DNA from: a virus
IMG/VR virus record: IMGVR_UViG_3300011113_000123
Span: 32,001-96,000 of that record
Length of the DNA: 64,000 nucleotides
Direction: 5' to 3' (one strand)
The position numbers were made by a program, and so were the translations under genes. Shown piece after piece: positions 16,533 to 37,130 of this stretch; position 1 is the first letter of the stretch; each line of letters opens with the position of its first letter. Below the pieces are notes generated by a model. It saw only the letters and a program-made list of their open reading frames with translations. It made no database searches and was not told the origin of the DNA.

Positions 16533-16717
16533 TGGAATTTGTAGCCAACGAAATCTACGTTGATCGCGAAGGCAATGAGTATAGATACCTTGAGCGTCGT
16601 AGTGGCGTCCAGGTATTTGAGTCTGTTGAAACTGGTACTCGTCTTGTATTGAATCCTGTTGGGCGTTATAGATGGGATGACCAGGATCATCCTCGTGACA
16701 TTATCGGAAAGAAATGA
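16532..16717 (+). CDS. Hypothetical protein
   Basis: Coupled overlaps with gp47 and gp46. Confidence 0.6.
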   Translation: MEFVANEIYVDREGNEYRYLERRSGVQVFESVETGTRLVLNPVGRYRWDDQDHPRDIIGKK

Positions 16718-18420
16718 TTCACTTCACAAAGGTACGCTGGAAGAACTTCATTTCGACCGGCAACGCCTTCACAGAAATCCATCTCGATAAGAACGACTCT
16801 ACTCTCATCGTTGGCGAAAACGGCGCGGGCAAGTCTACAATGCTTGACGCGCTGTGCTTTGGTCTTTACGGTAAGCCGTTCCGTAAGATCAAGAAGGATC
16901 AGCTGATCAACTCTGTGAACGGTCGTGATACTGTTGTCGAAGTTGAGTTCACATCAAAAGAACATCAGTACGTCGTAAGACGCGGAATCAAGCCAAGTCT
17001 ATTTGAGATTATAGAAGACGGCGTGCTGATTGACCAGGATGCAGCTGCGCGTGACTATCAAGACATGCTTGAGAAGCATATTCTTAAGTTGAGCATGAAG
17101 TCATTCACGCAGATTGTTATTCTTGGTTCGTCGTCGTTCGTTCCGTTCATGCAACTGACTACGAGCGTTCGGCGTGAAGTCATCGAGGATCTGTTAGATA
17201 TCCGCGTCTTTTCCTCGATGGCTCTCCTTCTTAAAGATCGTGTCGCGACTAATCGTGAAGAGTATAAGCTCAACGATCGTGACATTACATACACGAACGA
17301 TAGCATCAGAGCTCAGGAAAAGATCCGCGTAGAGCTAGATGAAAAGCGTCTGGAAAAGATTGAAGAGTATAAGAAGCGTATCGAGCAAGCTCAGAGTAAC
17401 ATCGCGCGCGAGCACGCGAGCGCGTCAGAAATAAATGCTGAGATTGAAGAGCTGATGGAAAAGTGTTCTAACCATCAAACTCTCAGCTCGCGCGTTCAGA
17501 AGATTTTGAGCTTGGAAAAGAGCTTGGAAACAAAGAAAACTAACGCTCGTAAGACTATCAAGTTCTATGCTGACAACGACGAGTGTCCTACATGCACGCA
17601 AACTATCGACATACACGTTCGAGCGGAGAAGATTGGTGAGAAGGAAAAAGTCATCCATGAAATCGAGGACGGTCTCAAGAAGCTCGCGACCGAGTTGGCT
17701 ACGACAGAAGAAAGCCTCGCCAGAGTTCAAGAAATCCAGCGCGACGTATCAGTACGCCAGCGTGATTATGCTGCTTGCCAGACTGCAATTGCAGCCTATC
17801 AGAAAGAAATCTCTGTTTACAACAAAGAAATCGGGAATCTTAACAAAACCGAAGACGCCACGTCGGCGACCGGTGCACTGATTGGGCTTCGTGATGATCT
17901 AGCGAAGTTCCTTGAAGTGAAGGAACGTATCCTACGTGAGAAGGAGATGTATGAACTTGCTACTGTTATCCTGCGTGATAGTGGAATCAAGTCGCGTATC
18001 ATTAAGCAGTACATACCAGTCATCAACAAACTGGTGAATAAATACCTCGCCGCCATGGACTTCTTTGTGAAGTTCGAACTGAACGAGTCGTTTGAAGAAA
18101 AGATCCTATCGCGCCATCGCGATGACTTTACATATGACTCGTTCAGTGAAGGTGAGAAGATGCGTATTGATCTTGCGCTTCTGTTCACATGGCGTTCTAT
18201 CGCACGTATGAAAAACAGTGCCAGCACCAACCTGTTGATCCTCGACGAAGTGTTCGACGCATCACTAGACTCTAATGGCTGCGACGAGTTCCTAAAGATC
18301 ATCCACGACATGGAAGGATCTAACATATTCGTCATATCGCATAAGGGCGATGTGCTGCATGATAAGTTCGCTAACACAATACGCTTTACAAAACACAAAA
18401 ACTTTAGTAGGATAGTATGA
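16714..18420 (+). CDS. gp46: Recombination ATPase subunit (Rad50/SbcC-like)
   Basis: GENGAGKST, CPTC zinc hook, FSEGEKMRIDLAL, LILDEVFD. Confidence 0.96.
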   Translation: MIHFTKVRWKNFISTGNAFTEIHLDKNDSTLIVGENGAGKSTMLDALCFGLYGKPFRKIKKDQLINSVNGRDTVVEVEFTSKEHQYVVRRGIKPSLFEIIEDGVLIDQDAAARDYQDMLEKHILKLSMKSFTQIVILGSSSFVPFMQLTTSVRREVIEDLLDIRVFSSMALLLKDRVATNREEYKLNDRDITYTNDSIRAQEKIRVELDEKRLEKIEEYKKRIEQAQSNIAREHASASEINAEIEELMEKCSNHQTLSSRVQKILSLEKSLETKKTNARKTIKFYADNDECPTCTQTIDIHVRAEKIGEKEKVIHEIEDGLKKLATELATTEESLARVQEIQRDVSVRQRDYAACQTAIAAYQKEISVYNKEIGNLNKTEDATSATGALIGLRDDLAKFLEVKERILREKEMYELATVILRDSGIKSRIIKQYIPVINKLVNKYLAAMDFFVKFELNESFEEKILSRHRDDFTYDSFSEGEKMRIDLALLFTWRSIARMKNSASTNLLILDEVFDASLDSNGCDEFLKIIHDMEGSNIFVISHKGDVLHDKFANTIRFTKHKNFSRIV

Positions 18421-18953
18421 TGTATGATTTGCTAAAAGGTAACGATCCGCTCCTGAAGAGCGTGTGCCCAGAGTTCGATTTTGAACGTGGATATTTCGAT
18501 GAACAAAGTCTTGCCTTTAACGGAGAAGAGTTATACAATTATCTTCGTGATAAGATGATCGAGCATAAGGGCGTAGGTCTTTCTGCCCCTCAGCTTGGTA
18601 TCATGACTCGCGCGTTCGTGATTGGTAATCCGTCAGACCCAGACAACATCATTGGTATCTTTAATCCTATGATCGTTGACTATAGCGAAGAAACTGTAGT
18701 GTACGAAGAAGGATGTGTCAGCTATCCTGGTATGTTCATCAAGATCAAGCGCCCGCGTTCGATTCGCGTTCGCTATCGTAACTTCAACGGAGAAACTGTA
18801 ACTATTAAGTTCGATGGTTACACAGCGCGAGTGTTTCAGCACGAGTACGATCACCTAAATGGTATTACGTTCCAGCAACGAGCCAATCGTTATCATCTAG
18901 AGCAGGCTCAACGATTCAAAGACAGAGCAGACAGGAAGCTGAAAAGCGCATGA
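18417..18953 (+). CDS. def: Peptide deformylase
   Basis: GVGLSAPQLG, EGCVS, QHEYDHLNG motifs. Confidence 0.93.
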   Translation: MMYDLLKGNDPLLKSVCPEFDFERGYFDEQSLAFNGEELYNYLRDKMIEHKGVGLSAPQLGIMTRAFVIGNPSDPDNIIGIFNPMIVDYSEETVVYEEGCVSYPGMFIKIKRPRSIRVRYRNFNGETVTIKFDGYTARVFQHEYDHLNGITFQQRANRYHLEQAQRFKDRADRKLKSA

Positions 18954-20089
18954 GTAACTATCAGCCGTATACCGTAGAAGACGTGCGACGTTCATCGTCT
19001 CGCGAACTGTTCACTGTAATTTCAACGTTCGCTGGAGGCGGAGGATCTTCGACTGGGTATCGGCTTGCAGGCGGGAAAGTTGTCGCGATCAACGAGTTCG
19101 TTGAGGAAGCAGTAGCTACCTATTCGCGCAACTTTCCCGATACGAAAGTGATTCTTGGGGATATTAAGAACATCACCGGAACAGATCTACTCGCTGCAGG
19201 AAATTTGCATCCAGGCGATCTTGATATCCTTGACGGCTCTCCTCCTTGTTCCGCGTTTTCTTCGTCTGGTAAAGGTAAGAAGGGATGGAACAAGGAGAAG
19301 AAATACTCTGACGGAAAGGTCGTAAAGAACATTGAAGATCTATTCCTTGAATATATAAGGATAGCTGAAGATATCAGCCCTAAGGTAATCGTAGCAGAAA
19401 ACGTCGAGGGTATCACCGCTCGCGCTGCGATTGAAAAACTCAGAGAATTCGTAACAGGCTTCGAGCACGTTTCGCCCGGCTACCAAGTAGTCTATCAGGT
19501 GATGGATGCGTCGAAGTTTGGGGTGCCCCAGAGTCGTATGAGAACCTTCTTCGTGGGAGTTAGGAACGATGTGTTCGCGACTCTGGGGCTGGAGGAGTAT
19601 GAGCTCGCTAGACGAGTTTTTCCAGTACCCACTACGAGTGATGGCGTGTCGATTGGTAGCGCGATCGAAGGGATCGAGAACGATCCAGCAGAAGTTCAAA
19701 TGCTCCTGGACTTCTGCGAAACAAGTTTCCAAAAGAAGTTCGTGGAAACTATGCCATTCAATCCTCATAAGGTGTTGAAGCCAGGTCCTGTTAACGGCAA
19801 GACTTCTTGCTTTAACATGAAACGCCCCGCACCCAATCTTCCTTCTCCTACTCTCACACAGATGGGTCAGCAGCGTAGTGCCAGTGGCGTTATGCACTAT
19901 GCTGCGAATAGGAAGTTGACAATCAAAGAAATGAAGCGTATTATGAGTCTTCCTGATGACTACGAGCTGACTGGCACGTTCGATCAGCAGGCTGAACGTA
20001 TTGGTCGAATGGTTGCGCCGAAGATGATGTGCGCTCTAGCCACATCAATCTATGAAAACATCTTGAAACCATATGAGGAATTGCAATGA
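18950..20089 (+). CDS. C5-cytosine DNA methyltransferase family, probable carboxymethyltransferase
   Basis: FAGGGG, GSPPC, ENV, QSRMR, RKLT..EMKR motifs; motif X reads IGRMV instead of IGNAV. Confidence 0.9.
   Translation: MSNYQPYTVEDVRRSSSRELFTVISTFAGGGGSSTGYRLAGGKVVAINEFVEEAVATYSRNFPDTKVILGDIKNITGTDLLAAGNLHPGDLDILDGSPPCSAFSSSGKGKKGWNKEKKYSDGKVVKNIEDLFLEYIRIAEDISPKVIVAENVEGITARAAIEKLREFVTGFEHVSPGYQVVYQVMDASKFGVPQSRMRTFFVGVRNDVFATLGLEEYELARRVFPVPTTSDGVSIGSAIEGIENDPAEVQMLLDFCETSFQKKFVETMPFNPHKVLKPGPVNGKTSCFNMKRPAPNLPSPTLTQMGQQRSASGVMHYAANRKLTIKEMKRIMSLPDDYELTGTFDQQAERIGRMVAPKMMCALATSIYENILKPYEELQ
19916..19944 (+). promoter_or_regulatory. Intragenic sigma70-type promoter upstream of the CmoA-like gene
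   Basis: TTGACA-N17-TATTAT. Confidence 0.45.
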
Positions 20090-20769
20090 CAGGTAAGTTC
20101 ACGTTCGCTACGCGCGAGGAAGGCTTCGACGAGCATATCGACACCTCGATTCGTGGATATGGTGATCTGTGGCGAGACGTAGTTGATATCTCGCAGTATT
20201 TCGTCGAAGATCAGACCATGGTCGTTGACATCGGTTGCTCGACTGGTAAGATGCTAAAGCATATGATCGCGCAGAACAAGTTCGCTCCCCTGGCTATGTA
20301 CGAAGGCGTTGAGATCGAACCTGAGTTCTGGAAGGATTACGACGAAGACGAACGCAACTGGAGTCAGCTCCAGTATCATAAGGGTAGCGTCCTTGACTAC
20401 GACTTCTACAACTGCTCGTACGTGACTAGCATTTTCACGTTGCAGTTCATGTCGTTCAAGGATAGGAAGCAAGTGTTCGAGCAGGTCCATAGAGGACTGT
20501 TGCCAGGCGGAGCGTTTGTGTTCGCAGAAAAAACTATGCCTGAGAGCGTTCGTATCCACGAGATTCGTACGTTCACCTACTACGACTTTAAGCGCAAAAC
20601 GTTTGCGTCTGACGATATCATGGATAAGGAACGTCAGCTTAGGCATATGACCAAGCCCAGCACTCGGCAGGAAATCGTCGATATGTGTCGGAACGCGGGC
20701 TTCACCGTAGTCGACTCGTTCTGGCAGAACCACGCTTTTACCGGCTTTATCGCTCTTAAGAATCCATAA
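20086..20769 (+). CDS. cmoA: CmoA-like carboxy-S-adenosylmethionine synthase
   Basis: FDEHIDTSIRGY, DIGCSTG, FTLQF, PGGAFVFAEK resemble CmoA-family motifs; ATGA overlap with the MTase. Confidence 0.8.
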   Translation: MTGKFTFATREEGFDEHIDTSIRGYGDLWRDVVDISQYFVEDQTMVVDIGCSTGKMLKHMIAQNKFAPLAMYEGVEIEPEFWKDYDEDERNWSQLQYHKGSVLDYDFYNCSYVTSIFTLQFMSFKDRKQVFEQVHRGLLPGGAFVFAEKTMPESVRIHEIRTFTYYDFKRKTFASDDIMDKERQLRHMTKPSTRQEIVDMCRNAGFTVVDSFWQNHAFTGFIALKNP

Positions 20770-20774
20770 AAGCC

Positions 20775-20803
20775 TTGACAATCGACCCCTAAGCGCGTAC
20801 AAT
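20775..20803 (+). promoter_or_regulatory. Early promoter
   Basis: TTGACA-N17-TACAAT. Confidence 0.85.
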
Positions 20804-20829
20804 GAAAATTGTCAATGATGGAGTCGAAA

Positions 20830-21042
20830 ATGTTTAACGCTATAAAAATCGCTAAGTATAACTTCGTAGAAAACGCGCTTTTCTACTTTCATAATAAAGT
20901 AATCGACTATACGCTTACTACTAATAACGTAACTATACTTAAAATCCTTCTTAAGCTTCAGCGTTATATACTTGCTAAGGGGGTTTGTTACGAAAACTTT
21001 TACGAAACTTTCTACGATCATTACGAAGCTATCGAATACTGA
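20830..21042 (+). CDS. Small early hypothetical protein (AT-rich)
   Basis: GGAG RBS before ATG 20830; own promoter and terminator. Confidence 0.6.
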   Translation: MFNAIKIAKYNFVENALFYFHNKVIDYTLTTNNVTILKILLKLQRYILAKGVCYENFYETFYDHYEAIEY

Positions 21043-21082
21043 TACAAAAAAGTTTCGCTAACGAAATCAGTGACTTAGCACT

Positions 21083-21113
21083 AACCCTCTGTTTTTACAG
21101 GGGGTTTATTTTT
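21083..21113 (+). terminator. Probable terminator
   Basis: AACCCTCTGT / ACAGGGGGTT stem followed by TATTTTT. Confidence 0.65.
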
Positions 21114-21120
21114 GGAAGGT

Positions 21121-21170
21121 GCCATTGACAATCAGCCAGAAACCCCGTAGAATCAATATAGTGAATGGAG
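21121..21170 (+). repeat. 50-bp promoter+RBS repeat, copy 1 (early promoter)
   Basis: TTGACA-N17-TAGAAT..GGAG; 48/50 identical to 21375-21424. Confidence 0.9.
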
Positions 21171-21176
21171 GCTGAT

Positions 21177-21239
21177 ATGGATAACTCGACCCAAGCTGAT
21201 TCGGCTGACTACGAAATCCCCTACGTCTCCCGCCGCTAA
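21177..21239 (+). CDS. 20-aa microprotein MDNSTQADSADYEIPYVSRR
   Basis: GGAGG RBS directly downstream of a consensus promoter. Confidence 0.4.
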   Translation: MDNSTQADSADYEIPYVSRR

Positions 21240-21253
21240 TCTGGAGCTTGACT

Positions 21254-21382
21254 ATGCACACTGAGGCTTTGCTTTACGCTTTCGCTCCCCTTATCGCCTA
21301 TGCTCTAGGCTCAGTTCTGACCCTCATCTGCTACAGCTACGCTATAAGAAAAAAGACCAAAAACGCCAAAAAGGGCCATTGA
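21254..21382 (+). CDS. 42-aa single-TM membrane peptide with basic tail
   Basis: GGAG RBS; MHTEALLYAFAPLIAYALGSVLTLICYSYAIRKKTKNAKKGH. Confidence 0.5.
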   Translation: MHTEALLYAFAPLIAYALGSVLTLICYSYAIRKKTKNAKKGH

Positions 21383-21424
21383 CAATCAACCAGGAACCCC
21401 GTAGAATCAATATAGTGAATGGAG
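21375..21424 (+). repeat. 50-bp promoter+RBS repeat, copy 2 (early promoter)
   Basis: TTGACA(21379)-N17-TAGAAT..GGAG. Confidence 0.9.
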
Positions 21425-21429
21425 CCAAC

Positions 21430-21636
21430 ATGAAACTGATTCTTTCTTATGGGGAAATCCCTGATGTGGAAATCGAAGGAAACTTCGACTTCGACTCTGC
21501 GCTTGCATACATCGAAATGCTTGAGAATCAGGAAAATCCTGAAATCGAAGGAGCTGAAGTGCTTCTCAGAGATGGAGTCGACGAATGGTTCCTTGACTCT
21601 GACGAAAACTCGCTCTACTGGTCTAAGATTGTCTAA
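21430..21636 (+). CDS. Small acidic early protein
   Basis: ATG 21430 after GGAG. Confidence 0.65.
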   Translation: MKLILSYGEIPDVEIEGNFDFDSALAYIEMLENQENPEIEGAEVLLRDGVDEWFLDSDENSLYWSKIV

Positions 21637-21649
21637 CAGGAGCTGACCG

Positions 21650-21859
21650 ATGGTAAACGTGGAAAAGGTGTCCAAGTTCTTAAAAGAATGGTTCGACGAT
21701 GCCGACAAGGTTGAGTATCACAATGTTGCTGGCGGCTATTGGGACGTGATATACTATGATGGCGACGACGTTCGCGTCGAGGCGTACAAGTTCGTGGATG
21801 GGAAGTTGAAAAACTTTTCTTCCATGGTGTACGGGGAAGACATGTACGAAGAAGAATGA
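21650..21859 (+). CDS. Small acidic early protein
   Basis: AGGAG RBS; operon packing. Confidence 0.65.
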   Translation: MVNVEKVSKFLKEWFDDADKVEYHNVAGGYWDVIYYDGDDVRVEAYKFVDGKLKNFSSMVYGEDMYEEE

Positions 21860-21874
21860 GACTGGAGATGTGCT

Positions 21875-22084
21875 ATGGTTGAACAGATTACCCACGTTGT
21901 CGAATTCAGCTATTGGTATCGCTGCAACTACGGAATGGAGCTAGGTTCCAACGAAAGGAATTTCGTCAGTGAGTCTGCGGCCGATGAGTACGCGGATTAT
22001 CTGATGAAGAACCACGAAGTGGTATCAGTTCGTGTCGTCAAGCTCGATAAGCCGTTCATGGCTGGCTCTCAGTTCGAGGAGTAA
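21875..22084 (+). CDS. Small early protein
   Basis: GGAG RBS; operon packing. Confidence 0.6.
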   Translation: MVEQITHVVEFSYWYRCNYGMELGSNERNFVSESAADEYADYLMKNHEVVSVRVVKLDKPFMAGSQFEE

Positions 22085-22088
22085 TGCG

Positions 22089-22262
22089 ATGATTAAGCTC
22101 AACGATCGCGTTCAATATATCAAAAGCATCGAGTGGGGCCCAGCGACTGGCGATACTGGCGTTGTGATACACGTCTTCAGCGACGGAACGTTTCTGGTTC
22201 GTGTTGACGGTGCGCCTGGCGCCTACTGCACTCATCGTCGTGAAGTTGCTGTTATTAAGTGA
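22089..22262 (+). CDS. Small SH3/KOW-like early protein
   Basis: GAGGAG RBS; LNDRV...GDTGVV..V..DG.FLVRVDG pattern. Confidence 0.55.
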   Translation: MIKLNDRVQYIKSIEWGPATGDTGVVIHVFSDGTFLVRVDGAPGAYCTHRREVAVIK

Positions 22263-22360
22263 AGGACAGTAGCGATGACTGAATTCTTTCAAGACGCATA
22301 AGTTCATGACTGGTCCTATGTTCGGTTGTGTTAAGTTTCAATCTAGGGGATGAAGTGACA

Positions 22361-22597
22361 ATGTTCGTATTCGTGTTTGAGGATGTACTGATCGACTACT
22401 CTGCTGGTATGGCAGTGATTGTTGCTAATGATCTTCAGCGCGCTCAGAAAATGGCTTATGAAAAGTTTGGTGTTCGTGAGTCGTATGAACAGTTCATGGC
22501 TTCCGAAGATGGGGCGGGTTTTGCAAAGCCTACTGCTGAGTTCCGCACTGATGACTTCGAAGAAGAGCAGATTAAGTATGTGTATGGTGGAGGTTGA
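22361..22597 (+). CDS. Small early protein
   Basis: ATG 22361; ends YVYGGG. Confidence 0.6.
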   Translation: MFVFVFEDVLIDYSAGMAVIVANDLQRAQKMAYEKFGVRESYEQFMASEDGAGFAKPTAEFRTDDFEEEQIKYVYGGG

Positions 22598-22598
22598 T

Positions 22599-22796
22599 AT
22601 GACTGTGAAGTATCGTATTCAACTTGTAGAATCCGAGCGTGGATGGGGTCAGGAATACTGGTCTGAAGAGTATGACACGTTCGAAGAAGCGAAGGAACGT
22701 ATCAAAGACGTCAATTCTAAGAACATCGGCGCAACCGTTCCTGGTTGGTATATGCAAGCCGAAGAAACGATTGAAGCCGTCGAGGCTGAAAGATAA
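22599..22796 (+). CDS. Small early protein
   Basis: GGAGG RBS; VESERGWGQ motif. Confidence 0.65.
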   Translation: MTVKYRIQLVESERGWGQEYWSEEYDTFEEAKERIKDVNSKNIGATVPGWYMQAEETIEAVEAER

Positions 22797-22799
22797 CCC

Positions 22800-22828
22800 T
22801 TGACAACTATCCGCCAGCGTAGTACAAT
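22800..22828 (+). promoter_or_regulatory. Early promoter
   Basis: TTGACA-N17-TACAAT. Confidence 0.85.
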
Positions 22829-22834
22829 TATTAA

Positions 22835-25156
22835 ATGATGAAGGAGAGAACTATGGCTGAACAGAAAACTGTAACTCCTGGCGGATCGCTCGATAAGCTC
22901 GCGAAGCTCCTCGCGGCTGAGAACATTATGGTTGAGCATAAGCCCATCAAGACGGCTTACTTCGACGTGAAGAATCGCGTTCTAGCCCTTCCTATGTGGA
23001 AGGAGATGACTGAGTCGCTCTATCACATGCTCGTCCTCCACGAGGTCGGTCATGCGCTGGATACGCCCGCTGACGGCTGGAAGGGTGCAATCGACAAGGT
23101 CAAGGAAGAAGAGAAATCTTCGTTCGTGGCTCAGACGTTTCAGGGCTACCTCAACGTCGTCGAAGACGCGCGCATTGAGCGTAAAATCAAAGCCAAGTTT
23201 CCTGGCTCGCGTAAGGATTTCGTCGACGGCTACAACTGGCTGCACGACCAAGACTTCTTCTCGATCAAGAACGAGAACATCGACAATCTGTCGCTGATTG
23301 ATCGTATCAATCTCTATTTCAAGCTCGGTACGCGCCTTCGTCTCAAGTTCACTGACGAAGAGCGAGTGTTCGTTCGTCGCGCTGAGCAGACTATCACGTT
23401 CGACGACGTGATCAAGTTGGCTGAGGATATCTTGGCTTACGCTAAGAAGAAGCGCGAAGAAGAGAACGAGCAGGAAGAGAATAGCTTCACTATCGCTATG
23501 GAAGGCGAAGACGGCGAAGAGTCTGACGACTTCGACGATTTTGACGAAGACGAGGCTGACGACTCTGACGACGAGAGCGGCAACCAGCGTTCGTCGAAGG
23601 GTGAAGGTGATATCCAGGACGACTCTGGCGGTGGTCGTAAGGGTGGGAGTTCTTCGAAGCCTGTTGATGAGGCTAAGACTGACTCTGCGATGAACGATCG
23701 TATGGAAGAGCTGCTCGACGAGAAAGTGTCGGGGCGTTCTTTCACCTACATCATGTACCCTAAGGATATCACGCACGAGGAGTTCGTCGTTCCTTACAAG
23801 ACCGTTCTTCAGCTCGTCGAGGGTGATTTCAATAAATGCTCCGACAAGGCTAAGGTTGTCGAGTATCGTAACTGGCTGGCCAATCGTTTCCGTGCGGAAA
23901 ACAACACGGCTATCAACTATATGGTCAAAGAGTTCGAGATGAAGAAGGCTGCTGTCGCATACTCGCGCAGCAAGCAGGCTAAGACTGGCGTCATCGATAC
24001 GAACAAGCTGCACGGCTATAAGTTCAATGATGATATCTTTAAGCGCCTGACGATTGAGCCGACTGGCAAGAACCATGGCGTCGTTGTTATCCTCGACATG
24101 TCTGGTTCTATGACTACCAACTACAAGGGCGCGATGGATCAGTTGATTTGTCTGGCTATGTTCTGTCGTCGTGTTGGTATTCCTCATCGTATCTATGGGT
24201 TTACCCAGGTTACGGATGACTTCAATAAGTTCGACAAGACGAGACGTCTTAAGAAGACGGAGATGTTTGCGCGTATCTCGCGTCGTGTTGGTGATAAGAG
24301 CTTCATATTCCCTGACATGGACTTTGATCTCGTAGAGTTCTTCCACGAGTCGATGTCGCTCAAGGAATTCAACACCATGGTTGGTACCTTGCTGCTTTCA
24401 GCCAAGATGCAGCATAGGCACCTTAGTGATGATTTCCTTGGAAAAACGCCACTCTCTGAGTTCCTTTCTCGCAACGTGAAAGATTATCATTACGGCTTCC
24501 TGCATTTCCTTCAGCTGGGTGGTACTCCGCTGAACGATGCGATCCTTGTATCTCGTGATCTGTTGGCTAAGTTCCGCAAGGAAAAGAACATTCAGATCAT
24601 GAACTTCGTGTGCATCACTGACGGCGAAAGTAATGGCTCGTCCTACTACAGACCGAGCCGGCATCCTGATTCTCTCCATAAGGAAGAGAATCTTGCATGT
24701 CGCTCTAACAAGTATGACAAGAATACGAATATCTTCATTGACGAAGAGAGCCGTATTCAAACCATGATCCAGTTCCAAGAGAACTACCAGATCACGGCTA
24801 TGTTTGCTCGTACCGTGAGCAAGTCGCAGAACACGACGTTCGTTGGCTTCTATATCGTCAATGGTACCTATGATGTTCGTGGTGTCGCCTATCGATATGC
24901 TCTTAATAACATGATTGAAGAGTTCATGGCTAAGTGGAAGAAGAGCAAGGGCGAGATCGCTGTCGATGGCATGCTCAACTTCGATGTGTTCTACATCATC
25001 TTGGGCGGAAGGAATCTCGAAGCCCAGCAGACTACGTTCGAAGAAGCCAAAGACTTGAAGAAGGGTCAGTTAGCCAGAGCTTTCATCACAGCTCAGACCA
25101 AACGCGGCGCTTCCCGCACTGTTCTTGGCAAATTCATCGAGAAGATCGCGGCTTGA
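22835..25156 (+). CDS. HExxH metallopeptidase-like + vWA domain protein (CobT-like partner of MoxR ATPase)
   Basis: LHEVGHAL, NVVEDARIE, acidic linker, MIDAS DMSGS, GGTPL, ITDGE. Confidence 0.85.
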   Translation: MMKERTMAEQKTVTPGGSLDKLAKLLAAENIMVEHKPIKTAYFDVKNRVLALPMWKEMTESLYHMLVLHEVGHALDTPADGWKGAIDKVKEEEKSSFVAQTFQGYLNVVEDARIERKIKAKFPGSRKDFVDGYNWLHDQDFFSIKNENIDNLSLIDRINLYFKLGTRLRLKFTDEERVFVRRAEQTITFDDVIKLAEDILAYAKKKREEENEQEENSFTIAMEGEDGEESDDFDDFDEDEADDSDDESGNQRSSKGEGDIQDDSGGGRKGGSSSKPVDEAKTDSAMNDRMEELLDEKVSGRSFTYIMYPKDITHEEFVVPYKTVLQLVEGDFNKCSDKAKVVEYRNWLANRFRAENNTAINYMVKEFEMKKAAVAYSRSKQAKTGVIDTNKLHGYKFNDDIFKRLTIEPTGKNHGVVVILDMSGSMTTNYKGAMDQLICLAMFCRRVGIPHRIYGFTQVTDDFNKFDKTRRLKKTEMFARISRRVGDKSFIFPDMDFDLVEFFHESMSLKEFNTMVGTLLLSAKMQHRHLSDDFLGKTPLSEFLSRNVKDYHYGFLHFLQLGGTPLNDAILVSRDLLAKFRKEKNIQIMNFVCITDGESNGSSYYRPSRHPDSLHKEENLACRSNKYDKNTNIFIDEESRIQTMIQFQENYQITAMFARTVSKSQNTTFVGFYIVNGTYDVRGVAYRYALNNMIEEFMAKWKKSKGEIAVDGMLNFDVFYIILGGRNLEAQQTTFEEAKDLKKGQLARAFITAQTKRGASRTVLGKFIEKIAA

Positions 25157-33602: not shown

Positions 33603-36122
33603 ATGACGAAATTCTACACGAATGCAATTGAGTACGGTAACAACATCCTCGTCCGCGGTTACGATCGCGGGCGCCCTTTCAATGAAAAGATTCCCTACAA
33701 ACCAACTCTGTTCCTACCGTCCAAGCGCAAGGATCTTGCGACGTGGAAAGACATCGTGGGTAACACGCTTGATCCTATGCCATTTGACTCTATGCGCGAT
33801 GCTAAGGATTTCATCAAGCGATACGAGGACGTCAGCAACTTCAAGCTGTATGGTATGCCTCGCTTTCTGTATGCGTATCTGAACGAAGAGTATCCTAACG
33901 AAATCGCATACGACCAAGATCTAATCAAGGTTGCGTATATCGACATCGAGGTTAGCTCAGAGTTTGGCTTTCCTACGGTTGAGCGCGCGTCTGATACTGT
34001 TACGGCTATCACGCTCAAGAAAGACGGCGTCTTCCATGTGTGGGGATACGGCGACTTCAGGCCCAATCGCAACGACGTTCAGTATTACCAATGCAACAAC
34101 GAAAAGGAACTGCTACTCAAGTTCCTCAGTGAGTGGAGCTTAGATTATCCTGATCTCGTGACTGGCTGGAACGTCACGTTCTTCGATATTCCTTATCTCG
34201 TTCGTCGTATGAGCGCGGTGCTTGGTGAAAACGAAGCAAAACGCTTTTCGCCATGGCGCATCTTTAAGGAACGTCGTGTTCGTACGAAGTTTGGTAAAGA
34301 AGAATCCGTCTACAACATCGCTGGCGTTGCTACTCTCGACTATCTCGAGATGTATCAGAAGTTCACTTATACTCAGCAAGAAAGCTACAAGCTCGATCAC
34401 ATCGCGTTCGTTGAACTCGGTGAGCGCAAGCTATCGTACGACGAATACGAAACGTTGCATGAGTTCTATATGAATGACTTCCAGCGATTCATCGAGTATA
34501 ACATTCGAGACGTTGAGCTCGTCGAAAAGCTCGACGATAAGATGAAGCTCATATCCATGGCTCTCGCGCTAGCGTACGACGCGAAGGTGACTTTGCTTGA
34601 TGTGTTCACACAAGTTCGTATGTGGGACGTTATCATTCACAATCACCTGTACAAGCAAGGTATCGCTGTACCTATCGAAGGTGGCGGATCTAAAGACGAA
34701 GCGTATGTTGGCGCGTTCGTCAAAGAACCTAAGCCTGGTGGATATGACTGGGTTATGTCATTCGACTTGAACTCTCTGTATCCGCATCTTATCATGCAGT
34801 ACAACATCTCTCCCGAAACGTTGCTGCGTGATGGTCGCAATCGCGCAGTGAAGATTGATGTAACAGTGGATGAACTGCTCGATGGTCATATCCCTGAAGT
34901 TCCAGAAGGATATGGTCTAGCTGCGAACGGCTGTTTCTTCAGCAAAGCGCGTCAGGGTTTCTTGCCTGAGATCATGGAGCGTATGTACAACGATCGTGTC
35001 GTCTACAAAGATAAGATGATCGCTGCTCAGAAAGATTATGAAAAGACTAAGTCTAAGCAAGCATCCAAGGATATCTCTCGATACAAAAACATGCAGCTCG
35101 CTAAGAAGGTTCAGTTGAACTCAGCTTACGGCGCGATTGGTAATCCTCACTTCCGTTTCTTCGATATCAATCAAGCGACGGCTATTACTCTTGGTGGTCA
35201 GCTATCTATCCGCTGGGCTGAAAACGAAATCAATAAGTATCTTAATAAGCTCCTAAAGACTAAGGATACGGACTATGTCATTGCTTCCGATACGGATTCG
35301 TTGTATATCAGTTTTGATAGACTTGTACAAGTGGTCTTTGAAGGTCGAGGATCGCAGCAAAGTGATCCTACAGCACAGAAGCAGAAAATCGTTGACTTTC
35401 TGGACAAGGTGGCTCGTGAAAAGATTGAACCTGTTATTGATGGGATTTATTCGGATCTTGCTGTTCGGATGGAAGCATTCTCGCAAAAAATGAACATGAA
35501 GCGTGAGGTTATCGCTGATCGTGGTATCTGGACTGCGAAGAAGCGATACATCCTCAACGTTCATGACTCTGAAGGTGTGCGATACGCCAAACCCAAACTA
35601 AAGATCATGGGCATCGAAGCTGTTAAGTCGTCGACTCCTGCTGTGTGTCGTCAGGCAATTATCGATGCGCTGAACATCATCATGTCTAAAGAAGAAGAGG
35701 ACTTGCATAAGTTCATCGCTGACTTCAAGTCTAAGTTCTACAAGCTGAGCTTCGAGGAAGTTGCGTTTCCGCGTTCCGTACAAGATCTAACTAAATACGC
35801 AAAGGAAACTAAGAGCATTCCTATCCACGTTCGTGGCGCGTTGCTCTATAACAATCTAGTCAAGAAGCTTAGTCTACAGAAAAAGTACGAGCTTATCAAG
35901 GATGGCGAAAAGATTCGCTTCTCATACTTGAAGATGCCTAATCCTGCTCGCGACAACGTGATTTGTGCGTTTTCATCTTTACCGTCAGAGTTCGACCTTG
36001 AAGAGTATATCGATTATGATATGCAGTTCGAGAAAGCGTTTATGGCTCCTCTCAACTCTATCCTTGAAGTGATTGACTGGCACTCTGAGAAGCGAAGCTC
36101 ATTGGAGGACTTCTTTTCATGA
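33603..36122 (+). CDS. gp43: Family B DNA polymerase
   Basis: DIEV exo I, SFDLNSLYPH, KVQLNSAYG, ASDTDS, KKRY. Confidence 0.98.
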   Translation: MTKFYTNAIEYGNNILVRGYDRGRPFNEKIPYKPTLFLPSKRKDLATWKDIVGNTLDPMPFDSMRDAKDFIKRYEDVSNFKLYGMPRFLYAYLNEEYPNEIAYDQDLIKVAYIDIEVSSEFGFPTVERASDTVTAITLKKDGVFHVWGYGDFRPNRNDVQYYQCNNEKELLLKFLSEWSLDYPDLVTGWNVTFFDIPYLVRRMSAVLGENEAKRFSPWRIFKERRVRTKFGKEESVYNIAGVATLDYLEMYQKFTYTQQESYKLDHIAFVELGERKLSYDEYETLHEFYMNDFQRFIEYNIRDVELVEKLDDKMKLISMALALAYDAKVTLLDVFTQVRMWDVIIHNHLYKQGIAVPIEGGGSKDEAYVGAFVKEPKPGGYDWVMSFDLNSLYPHLIMQYNISPETLLRDGRNRAVKIDVTVDELLDGHIPEVPEGYGLAANGCFFSKARQGFLPEIMERMYNDRVVYKDKMIAAQKDYEKTKSKQASKDISRYKNMQLAKKVQLNSAYGAIGNPHFRFFDINQATAITLGGQLSIRWAENEINKYLNKLLKTKDTDYVIASDTDSLYISFDRLVQVVFEGRGSQQSDPTAQKQKIVDFLDKVAREKIEPVIDGIYSDLAVRMEAFSQKMNMKREVIADRGIWTAKKRYILNVHDSEGVRYAKPKLKIMGIEAVKSSTPAVCRQAIIDALNIIMSKEEEDLHKFIADFKSKFYKLSFEEVAFPRSVQDLTKYAKETKSIPIHVRGALLYNNLVKKLSLQKKYELIKDGEKIRFSYLKMPNPARDNVICAFSSLPSEFDLEEYIDYDMQFEKAFMAPLNSILEVIDWHSEKRSSLEDFFS

Positions 36123-36331
36123 AGAAAAAGACTAAGAAACCCGCAAGGAAACCAACTCGCAACGATCTAGATAAGATGTCGTATGAAAAGCGAGAACGAG
36201 TAAGAAAACAGCTAAGAAAAGGGGCTGTATATACAAGAGCGTTCAAGACACCACAATCATTCGGTGCAGCCAGTCCAGTTAGACATGTTCCGATTGAAGA
36301 GTATTTGAAAGAAATCAAGAGTGATTCGTGA
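36119..36331 (+). CDS. Small basic hypothetical protein
   Basis: ATGA overlap with gp43; GGAGG RBS. Confidence 0.55.
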   Translation: MKKKTKKPARKPTRNDLDKMSYEKRERVRKQLRKGAVYTRAFKTPQSFGAASPVRHVPIEEYLKEIKSDS

Positions 36332-37130
36332 AATCTTAGTGCATCAGGTAGATGCTATGTCTCACGACAGCCGCGTAGCTGTTCTACTATCAGGCGGAGT
36401 CGATAGTGTATCTATTGCGTTTGCTGCGCATCGGCTCGGAAAGAAGGTAGTCGCTTACACGTTTCATCTCGATGGTCAGCCATCATATGATTCGCAGAAA
36501 GCAGTCGAGATCGCAAAGATCATGGAATGGGATTATCGTGTCGTGGTAGTCCCAACCAATAACGTAGAGCAAGACTTCATTCGTTTGGCTAAAGAAGTTC
36601 ACTGCGAAAAGAAAACACACTTCGAGTGTTGCTTTCCGTTTCTATACGTGTACCCACAGATCAAGGAGTATGAAGTTCTAAGTGGATGGGCTGCTGACGG
36701 ATACTATGGTGTATCGAAAAAAGCGAACATTCACTACAAGCATACGAAGGAAAAGTTCGACGAGTTTCGTAAAGACTACTTTGGTGCTAACAATCGCGCT
36801 GGATATATGTGGCATAAACGAATCGCGGAGAAGTTGCATAGCAAACGATTCATTGCTCCGTATCTAGATCCAGACGTTGCTAAGTTCTTTATGAGCAAAG
36901 ATTGGTATGAACTGAATCAGCCATATCAAAAGCATCATGTAGTCGAAGCATTCACTGAGTTCAAGCAGATTGGTGGTGTGAAGAAACATATCAATCTGCA
37001 ACTAGGATCAGGAATAGATAAGCTATTCGAGAAAGAAGTATTGAGCAACACCAATCTTAATTTTTACAATCGCAAGCGAGTTATGGACGTATGTCGTGAC
37101 TGGGCAAACAAAGGAGCAGAGTTGTGGTAA
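36321..37130 (+). CDS. Stand-alone asparagine-synthetase-like ATP-dependent amide ligase
   Basis: PP-loop LLSGGVDS, VLSGWAADGYYG, APYLD; no glutaminase domain. Confidence 0.8.
   Translation: MIREILVHQVDAMSHDSRVAVLLSGGVDSVSIAFAAHRLGKKVVAYTFHLDGQPSYDSQKAVEIAKIMEWDYRVVVVPTNNVEQDFIRLAKEVHCEKKTHFECCFPFLYVYPQIKEYEVLSGWAADGYYGVSKKANIHYKHTKEKFDEFRKDYFGANNRAGYMWHKRIAEKLHSKRFIAPYLDPDVAKFFMSKDWYELNQPYQKHHVVEAFTEFKQIGGVKKHINLQLGSGIDKLFEKEVLSNTNLNFYNRKRVMDVCRDWANKGAELW

Follow-up and report, generated by a model that had tools for sequence, protein, structure and literature searches.

The closest described counterpart of the genes considered here is the DNA modification system of the Synechococcus phage S-B43 (Yang et al., Nat Commun, Dec 2025; PMC12783734). 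Its CmoA (SpCmoA) is a carboxy-S-adenosyl methionine (carboxy-SAM) synthase with a kcat of 2.33 per s, and its CmoX (SpCmoX), for which carboxy-SAM is the sole accepted donor, forms 5-carboxymethylcytosine (5cxmC) at GC sites. In the 1.9 Å structure of SpCmoX (8YF3), Arg350 contacts the carboxymethyl group of carboxy-SAM in the place of M.HhaI Asn304, and the R350N substitution abolishes activity. Glycine is joined to 5cxmC by the AsnB-like ligase CmoY (SpCmoY), and the resulting 5-glycylcarboxymethylcytosine (5gcxmC) is found in the S-B43 virion DNA; resistance to HhaI in vitro was shown only for DNA modified by SpCmoX. The same study mined 5,615 candidate CmoX sequences from IMG/VR. Homologs of all three proteins are encoded in the stretch analyzed here, a 64,000-nt window (bases 32001–96000) of the 157,580-bp IMG/VR virus record IMGVR_UViG_3300011113_000123, which is approximately 90% complete. 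We consider it likely that cmoX, cmoA, and cmoY of this phage constitute a complete post-replicative cytosine hypermodification pathway of the S-B43 kind; of its steps, carboxymethylation is better supported than the choice of amine.

Three other systems are related to parts of this pathway. In bacteria, CmoA and CmoB act in the tRNA cmo5U pathway, in which the acceptor is tRNA ho5U. In the engineered, CpG-specific M.MpeI N374K, as presented in PMC12783734 (ref. 21 therein), Lys in place of the motif X Asn lets a C5-methyltransferase use carboxy-SAM provided by the host CmoA to form 5cxmC. The TET-associated GpC-specific C5-methyltransferases make 5-methylcytosine (5mC) for TET oxidation (Burke et al., PNAS 2021; PMC8256090). 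The window's CmoX resembles M.MpeI N374K in having a basic residue for the motif X Asn, but it is natural, carries Arg, probably acts at GpC, and would be served by the phage's own CmoA.

CmoX matches PF00145 over model positions 1–323 of 324 (E = 7.6e-52) and SpCmoX (PDB 8YF3) across residues 6–373 (E = 9.3e-104), with an identity of 49% to the S-B43 protein, and its gene is the sole PF00145 gene in the record. All of the residues named in PMC12783734 are kept, including the adenine and ribose contacts Phe25, Glu47, Phe48, and Asp69 of SpCmoX (here F27, E49, F50, and D71), the catalytic Cys98 of the SPPC motif (Cys100), Arg350 (Arg353), ENV, and RxR. The motif residues F27 (motif I, FxGxG), S97–C100 (motif IV, SPPC), E150–V152 (motif VI, ENV), and R196/R198 (motif VIII, RxR) are invariant in relatives, the SPPC column across 42 aligned sequences. 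The canonical motif X Asn (M.HhaI Asn304) is replaced by Arg353, positions 20000–20014 reading ATT GGT CGA ATG GTT, or I-G-R-M-V. A preliminary description, made from the sequence alone, had reported a complete C5-methyltransferase with this IG-R-MV motif, overlapping by ATGA a gene with CmoA-like motifs, and the full-length family match, the CGA codon, and the shared ATGA bear it out (Table 1).

The best NCBIfam match of CmoA is TIGR00740 (CmoA), at full length (E = 6.4e-23), and its translation holds DIGCSTG, FTLQF, and PGGAFVFAEK, the three motifs noted earlier. It shares an identity of 47% with SpCmoA, whose activity was measured, over 225 of 227 residues (E = 2e-77), matches phrog_4752 (E = 8.5e-53), and aligns at full length with the Escherichia coli CmoA structures 4IWN and 4GEK (E about 1e-17), which have the same fold. 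CmoB (PF08003), which had been reported as missing from the window, was not found even in the whole record, and a role of CmoA in tRNA modification is disfavored because the phage lacks CmoB. Unlike in the bacterial pathway, the predicted acceptor would be DNA cytosine. The earlier proposal that the phage makes its own carboxy-SAM for an Arg-type C5 transferase acting on phage DNA agrees with the S-B43 system, as judged from the identities of the two proteins.

The relatives of CmoX provide further support. The 49 IMG/VR loci encoding them fall into three groups. The first (87–92% identity, with one locus at 57%) has the order cmoX–cmoA as in the window; the second (65% identity) has the order cmoY–cmoX–(1.1 kb)–cmoA and one of its genomes (155 kb, with terminal repeats) is complete; and the third (41–44% identity) carries Leu at motif X (IG-L-MV), with no cmoA or cmoY nearby. 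The preliminary description had called for a survey of motif X Arg or Lys against cmoA. A cmoA was found within 2 kb in all 16 Arg loci (S-B43 and 15 IMG/VR loci, 49–92% identical to the window's CmoX) and nearby in none of the 25 full-length Leu-type relatives, counts that do not represent independent events because the loci are related to one another. From this pattern of co-occurrence, Arg353 is evidently not a chance substitution. The probability that CmoX is instead an ordinary 5mC methyltransferase, with CmoA serving host tRNA cmo5U or draining SAM, appears close to negligible. All canonical C5-methyltransferase motifs bar the motif X Asn are indeed intact, and SAM depletion by CmoA was raised as a possible side effect (PMC12783734); but wild-type SpCmoX took only carboxy-SAM and lost its activity with R350N, Arg and cmoA co-occur strictly, and the phage is without CmoB.

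The record yielded a single Asn_synthase match, cmoY. CmoY matches PF00733 (E = 2.2e-14) at positions 2–153 only, corresponding to the synthetase domain with no glutaminase domain, and has the PP-loop SGGVDS at residues 24–29. Its residues 1–265 align with 1–265 of the S-B43 CmoY at an identity of 51% (E = 4e-91), which is far above the threshold of the glycine-type cluster (approximately 30%) and supports a pathway of the S-B43 kind. In the preliminary description, 5cxmC was named as the product. The carboxymethylation stands, while 5gcxmC rather than bare 5cxmC is the likely end product because a CmoY ortholog is encoded in the window. It is unlikely that the pathway runs as described with an amine other than glycine, or with an end product otherwise unlike 5gcxmC. 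Several ligase clusters with differing pocket residues and unknown amines have been described (PMC12783734), and the identity of CmoY to SpCmoY is no more than 51%. However, its E-value is well inside the SpCmoY cluster threshold of 1e-56, the members of which keep the glycine-carboxylate-binding residues (PMC12783734), and glutamine-derived ammonia is an unlikely amine for an enzyme without a glutaminase domain.

Homology, conserved residues, and gene arrangement together suggest how the pathway would operate. CmoA would convert SAM and host prephenate to carboxy-SAM. CmoX, selecting carboxy-SAM over SAM through Arg353, would attack C6 of cytosine with Cys100 and move the carboxymethyl group to C5, yielding 5cxmC. 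CmoY would then adenylate the carboxyl group of 5cxmC and join an amine, most likely glycine, to give 5gcxmC. The target of CmoX is probably GpC, by analogy with S-B43; the genome holds 9,290 GpC sites, about 26% of all cytosines, which would be relevant if this target applies. The mark most likely shields the phage DNA from host nucleases, in line with the anti-restriction role put forward in the preliminary description. Expression of all three genes together with those for replication is expected, since cmoX and cmoA are translationally coupled to the gp46-like and peptide deformylase genes and cmoY is located behind the DNA polymerase gene.

Several points weigh against this reading. The phage is uncultured and known only from a metagenome. 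At 81.7 bits, CmoA lies below the TIGR00740 equivalog cut-off of 193.3 bits; the validated SpCmoA is likewise under it (115.6 bits), and thus the cut-off appears to define bacterial CmoA and not the phage clade. The target recognition region of CmoX is only moderately conserved, so that GC specificity is an assumption, and glycine as the amine is suggested by the orthology of CmoY. In addition, cmoY is not adjacent to cmoX and cmoA but lies 15.5 kb downstream, directly 3′ of the gp43 DNA polymerase gene and 5′ of uvsX, and it is absent from the polymerase junction and the rest of the contigs of three close relatives, G001 (139 kb), G003 (77 kb), and G004 (45 kb). For these two reasons, the tie of cmoY to cmoX–cmoA is one of orthology and not of neighborhood.

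The three relatives keep cmoX–cmoA, with CmoX 87–92% identical to that of the window, and in them the DNA polymerase gene is followed immediately by its neighbor. Nucleotide homology between the window and G001 stops at 36117 and restarts at 37130, with approximately 11 bp in G001 in place of the cmoY cassette. In a further relative, G010, a cmoY 88% identical to that of the window is found at the same gp43 junction. There it abuts gp43 with almost no spacer, while 198 nt (36123–36320) separate the gp43 stop from the GTG of cmoY in the window. The clean indel of approximately 1 kb suggests that some sister phages probably end the mark at 5cxmC and others do not. For the window phage itself, a mark ending at 5cxmC, with the AsnB-like gene doing another job such as nucleotide or tRNA-related amidation, is quite unlikely. 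The distance of cmoY, its lack in the three relatives, and its weak matches to QueC/ThiI-type PP-loop proteins speak for such a job, but CmoY is a full-length ortholog of SpCmoY, for which action on 5cxmC in DNA was demonstrated, and its ortholog lies directly upstream of cmoX in the clade of 65% identity.

Table 1. Features of the cmoX–cmoA and cmoY loci and of the related regions (window numbering unless stated otherwise).
Feature	Position	Strand	Basis
cmoX, DNA cytosine C5-carboxymethyltransferase homolog, 379 aa	18950–20089	+	PF00145; PDB 8YF3; S-B43 CmoX
Motif IV S97-P98-P99-C100, catalytic Cys (= SpCmoX S95–C98)	19238–19249	+	SPPC from residue 97; coordinates by arithmetic from the start of the open reading frame
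Arg353 codon CGA, motif X (= SpCmoX Arg350)	20006–20008	+	Direct sequence reading; alignment with 8YF3/S-B43 CmoX
cmoA, carboxy-SAM synthase homolog, 227 aa	20086–20769	+	TIGR00740; class I methyltransferase fold; start overlaps cmoX stop (ATGA 20086–20089)
cmoY, glutaminase-less AsnB-type PP-loop amide ligase homolog, 269 aa, GTG start	36321–37130	+	PF00733; S-B43 CmoY
cmoY cassette, indel between gp43 stop and next gene	36118–37129	+	Nucleotide homology to G001
gp46-like recombination nuclease subunit	16714–18420	+	Pfam SMC_N/AAA_23; ATGA overlap with next gene at 18417–18420
Peptide deformylase gene	18417–18953	+	Pfam Pep_deformylase; ATGA overlap with cmoX at 18950–18953
Terminator-like hairpin, first 3′ of cmoA, possible transcription-unit end	21083–21106	+	10-bp stem followed by T-run; consensus scan only; weak
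Variable slot, deformylase gene to 773-aa gene	18953–22835; L096: 8228–11496; L114: 8243–11971		Gene arrangement
TET/JBP (469 aa; genome 116,545–117,954), NTP-transferase/kinase fusion (520 aa), 130-aa open reading frame, TAGT glycosyltransferase (276 aa)	Genome 116,545–120,695 (L054: 4546–8696), outside the window

CmoX, CmoA, and CmoY are homologous to their S-B43 counterparts along the full length (identities of 49%, 47%, and 51%), with the catalytic Cys, the carboxy-SAM Arg, and the cofactor contacts kept; both phages are T4-like, and both are without CmoB. The S-B43 locus, the gene coordinates of which were confirmed by the source data of PMC12783734, has the order cmoA–cmoY–cmoX with cmoY adjacent, in contrast to the cmoX–cmoA order and the separate cmoY of the window. 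The window phage also differs from S-B43 in that psbA was not found in its record. Lacking psbA, the phage may not be a cyanophage. T4-like markers in the window include a gp47-like phosphoesterase, a gp46-like SMC/ABC ATPase, a family B DNA polymerase, and UvsX. Megablast of 18417–20769 against GenBank phages gave no match, and relatives are found only at the protein level. The ParB_N domain, a common neighbor of CmoX (PMC12783734), was not found in the record.

ATGA overlaps link the gp46-like gene to the peptide deformylase gene, the latter to cmoX, and cmoX to cmoA, a chain that suggests one translationally coupled unit. By pattern match only, a near-consensus TTGACA-N17-TATTAT sequence is located inside cmoX at 19916–19944, approximately 140 nt 5′ of cmoA, and could provide extra cmoA transcription. 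Seven plus-strand sites in the window (14426, 16477, 19916, 20775, 21125, 21379, and 22800), all on the coding strand, combine an intact TTGACA with a spacer of 17 nt and five of six TATAAT positions; 22 promoter-like sites were observed against 13.4 ± 3.8 expected.

When relatives of the gp46-like gene were compared, the slot that directly follows the peptide deformylase gene was found to vary in its cargo. These include cmoX–cmoA (the window), cmoY–cmoX–x–cmoA, a TAGT glycosyltransferase with a class I methyltransferase (L114, a locus in a 93%-complete genome), and a DruA-like protein (L096). In phage DLP6, a TET gene lies just upstream of the deformylase gene. The 773-aa protein kept downstream of the slot (window 22835–25156) matches phrog_459, annotated as "peptidase" (E = 2.9e-178), has no Pfam match, and holds a DMSGSM motif resembling the metal site of von Willebrand A domains.

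The nearest non-CmoX relatives, with 41–44% identity, resemble the TET-associated C5-methyltransferases, with which the window's CmoX has IG-x-MVAP and all motifs in common. In these Leu-type loci (L019–L043), the motif reads IG-L-MVAP, with Leu in place of the Arg of CmoX and the Asn of ordinary enzymes. Seven of them (L020, L021, L023, L024, L027, L033, and L041) have a TET/JBP gene directly downstream and for this reason resemble the GpC-specific 5mC methyltransferases with TET partners that Burke et al. (2021) described. Set against CmoX, the Leu-type enzymes also have neither cmoA nor cmoY in their surroundings. Leu at motif X may thus be a marker of a clade of TET-partnered GpC methyltransferases.

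A second modification operon, encoding TET/JBP, an NTP-transferase/kinase fusion, and a TAGT glycosyltransferase, is located in the same genome downstream of rnh and mazG (Table 1). Since CmoX is the sole C5 transferase in the record, a possible action of TET on its product was considered. TET/JBP would hydroxylate the methylene group of 5cxmC or of its glycine amide and TAGT would glycosylate it, giving a doubly decorated cytosine with both amide and sugar. This is highly unlikely. Besides the presence of the operon in a genome with a single C5 transferase, such cross-talk is favored by the relative G001, which also has both systems, by the TET partnership of the nearest non-Arg relatives of CmoX, and by the finding of TET-linked "C5-MTs" (C5-methyltransferases) with an altered motif X and no methylase activity (Burke et al., 2021; PMC8256090). 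On the other hand, full-length TET orthologs (33–37% identity) are encoded in three complete genomes, those of the Stenotrophomonas phage DLP6, the Caulobacter phage Cr30, and phage C48C1, in all of which a PF00145 gene is absent, so this TET family works without CmoX or 5mC. Moreover, most phage 5mYOX enzymes have no C5-MT partner and oxidize thymine (O'Toole et al., 2026; PMC13229309), and CmoXAY occurs in the absence of TET in S-B43 and in the complete genome G002. The metagenomic relatives add little. Five long TET-bearing fragments contain no PF00145 gene but also lack the gp46 region and are hence uninformative on the dependence of TET on CmoX, and TET was absent in the 12 contigs from the gp46 search, several of which have no cmoX after the deformylase gene, giving no case of TET without CmoX among these relatives. 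Taken together, the orthologs in genomes without a C5-methyltransferase, the TET-less S-B43 and G002, and the published thymine oxidation indicate that the TET of the window phage is most likely an independent thymine dioxygenase. Two independent post-replicative hypermodifications, one on C and one on T, are more likely than cross-talk between TET and CmoX. The TET relatives of DLP6 (L176, KU682439.2 27179–28525) and Cr30 (L177, KF301602.1 59353–60681) are annotated as "SNF2 DNA repair protein", a name that looks wrong from their full-length relationship to the window genome's TET, the Pfam match of which is Tet_JBP.

The preliminary description suspected that similar phage pathways had been reported, and this proved right. 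The CmoA–CmoX–CmoY chemistry is already published (PMC12783734), and the system of the window is therefore not novel. What is new is that an uncultured T4-like lineage without psbA joins the CmoA–CmoX–CmoY family. The sister genomes with a clean cmoY indel would represent natural 5cxmC and amide variants, useful for testing what the glycine adds. The position after the deformylase gene is a fixed variable slot in which DNA-modification cargos swap, and the split between Arg and Leu at motif X parts the carboxy-SAM users from the TET-partnered methyltransferases. The published picture is unchanged by these observations, which mainly back the claim that the pathway is widespread (PMC12783734).

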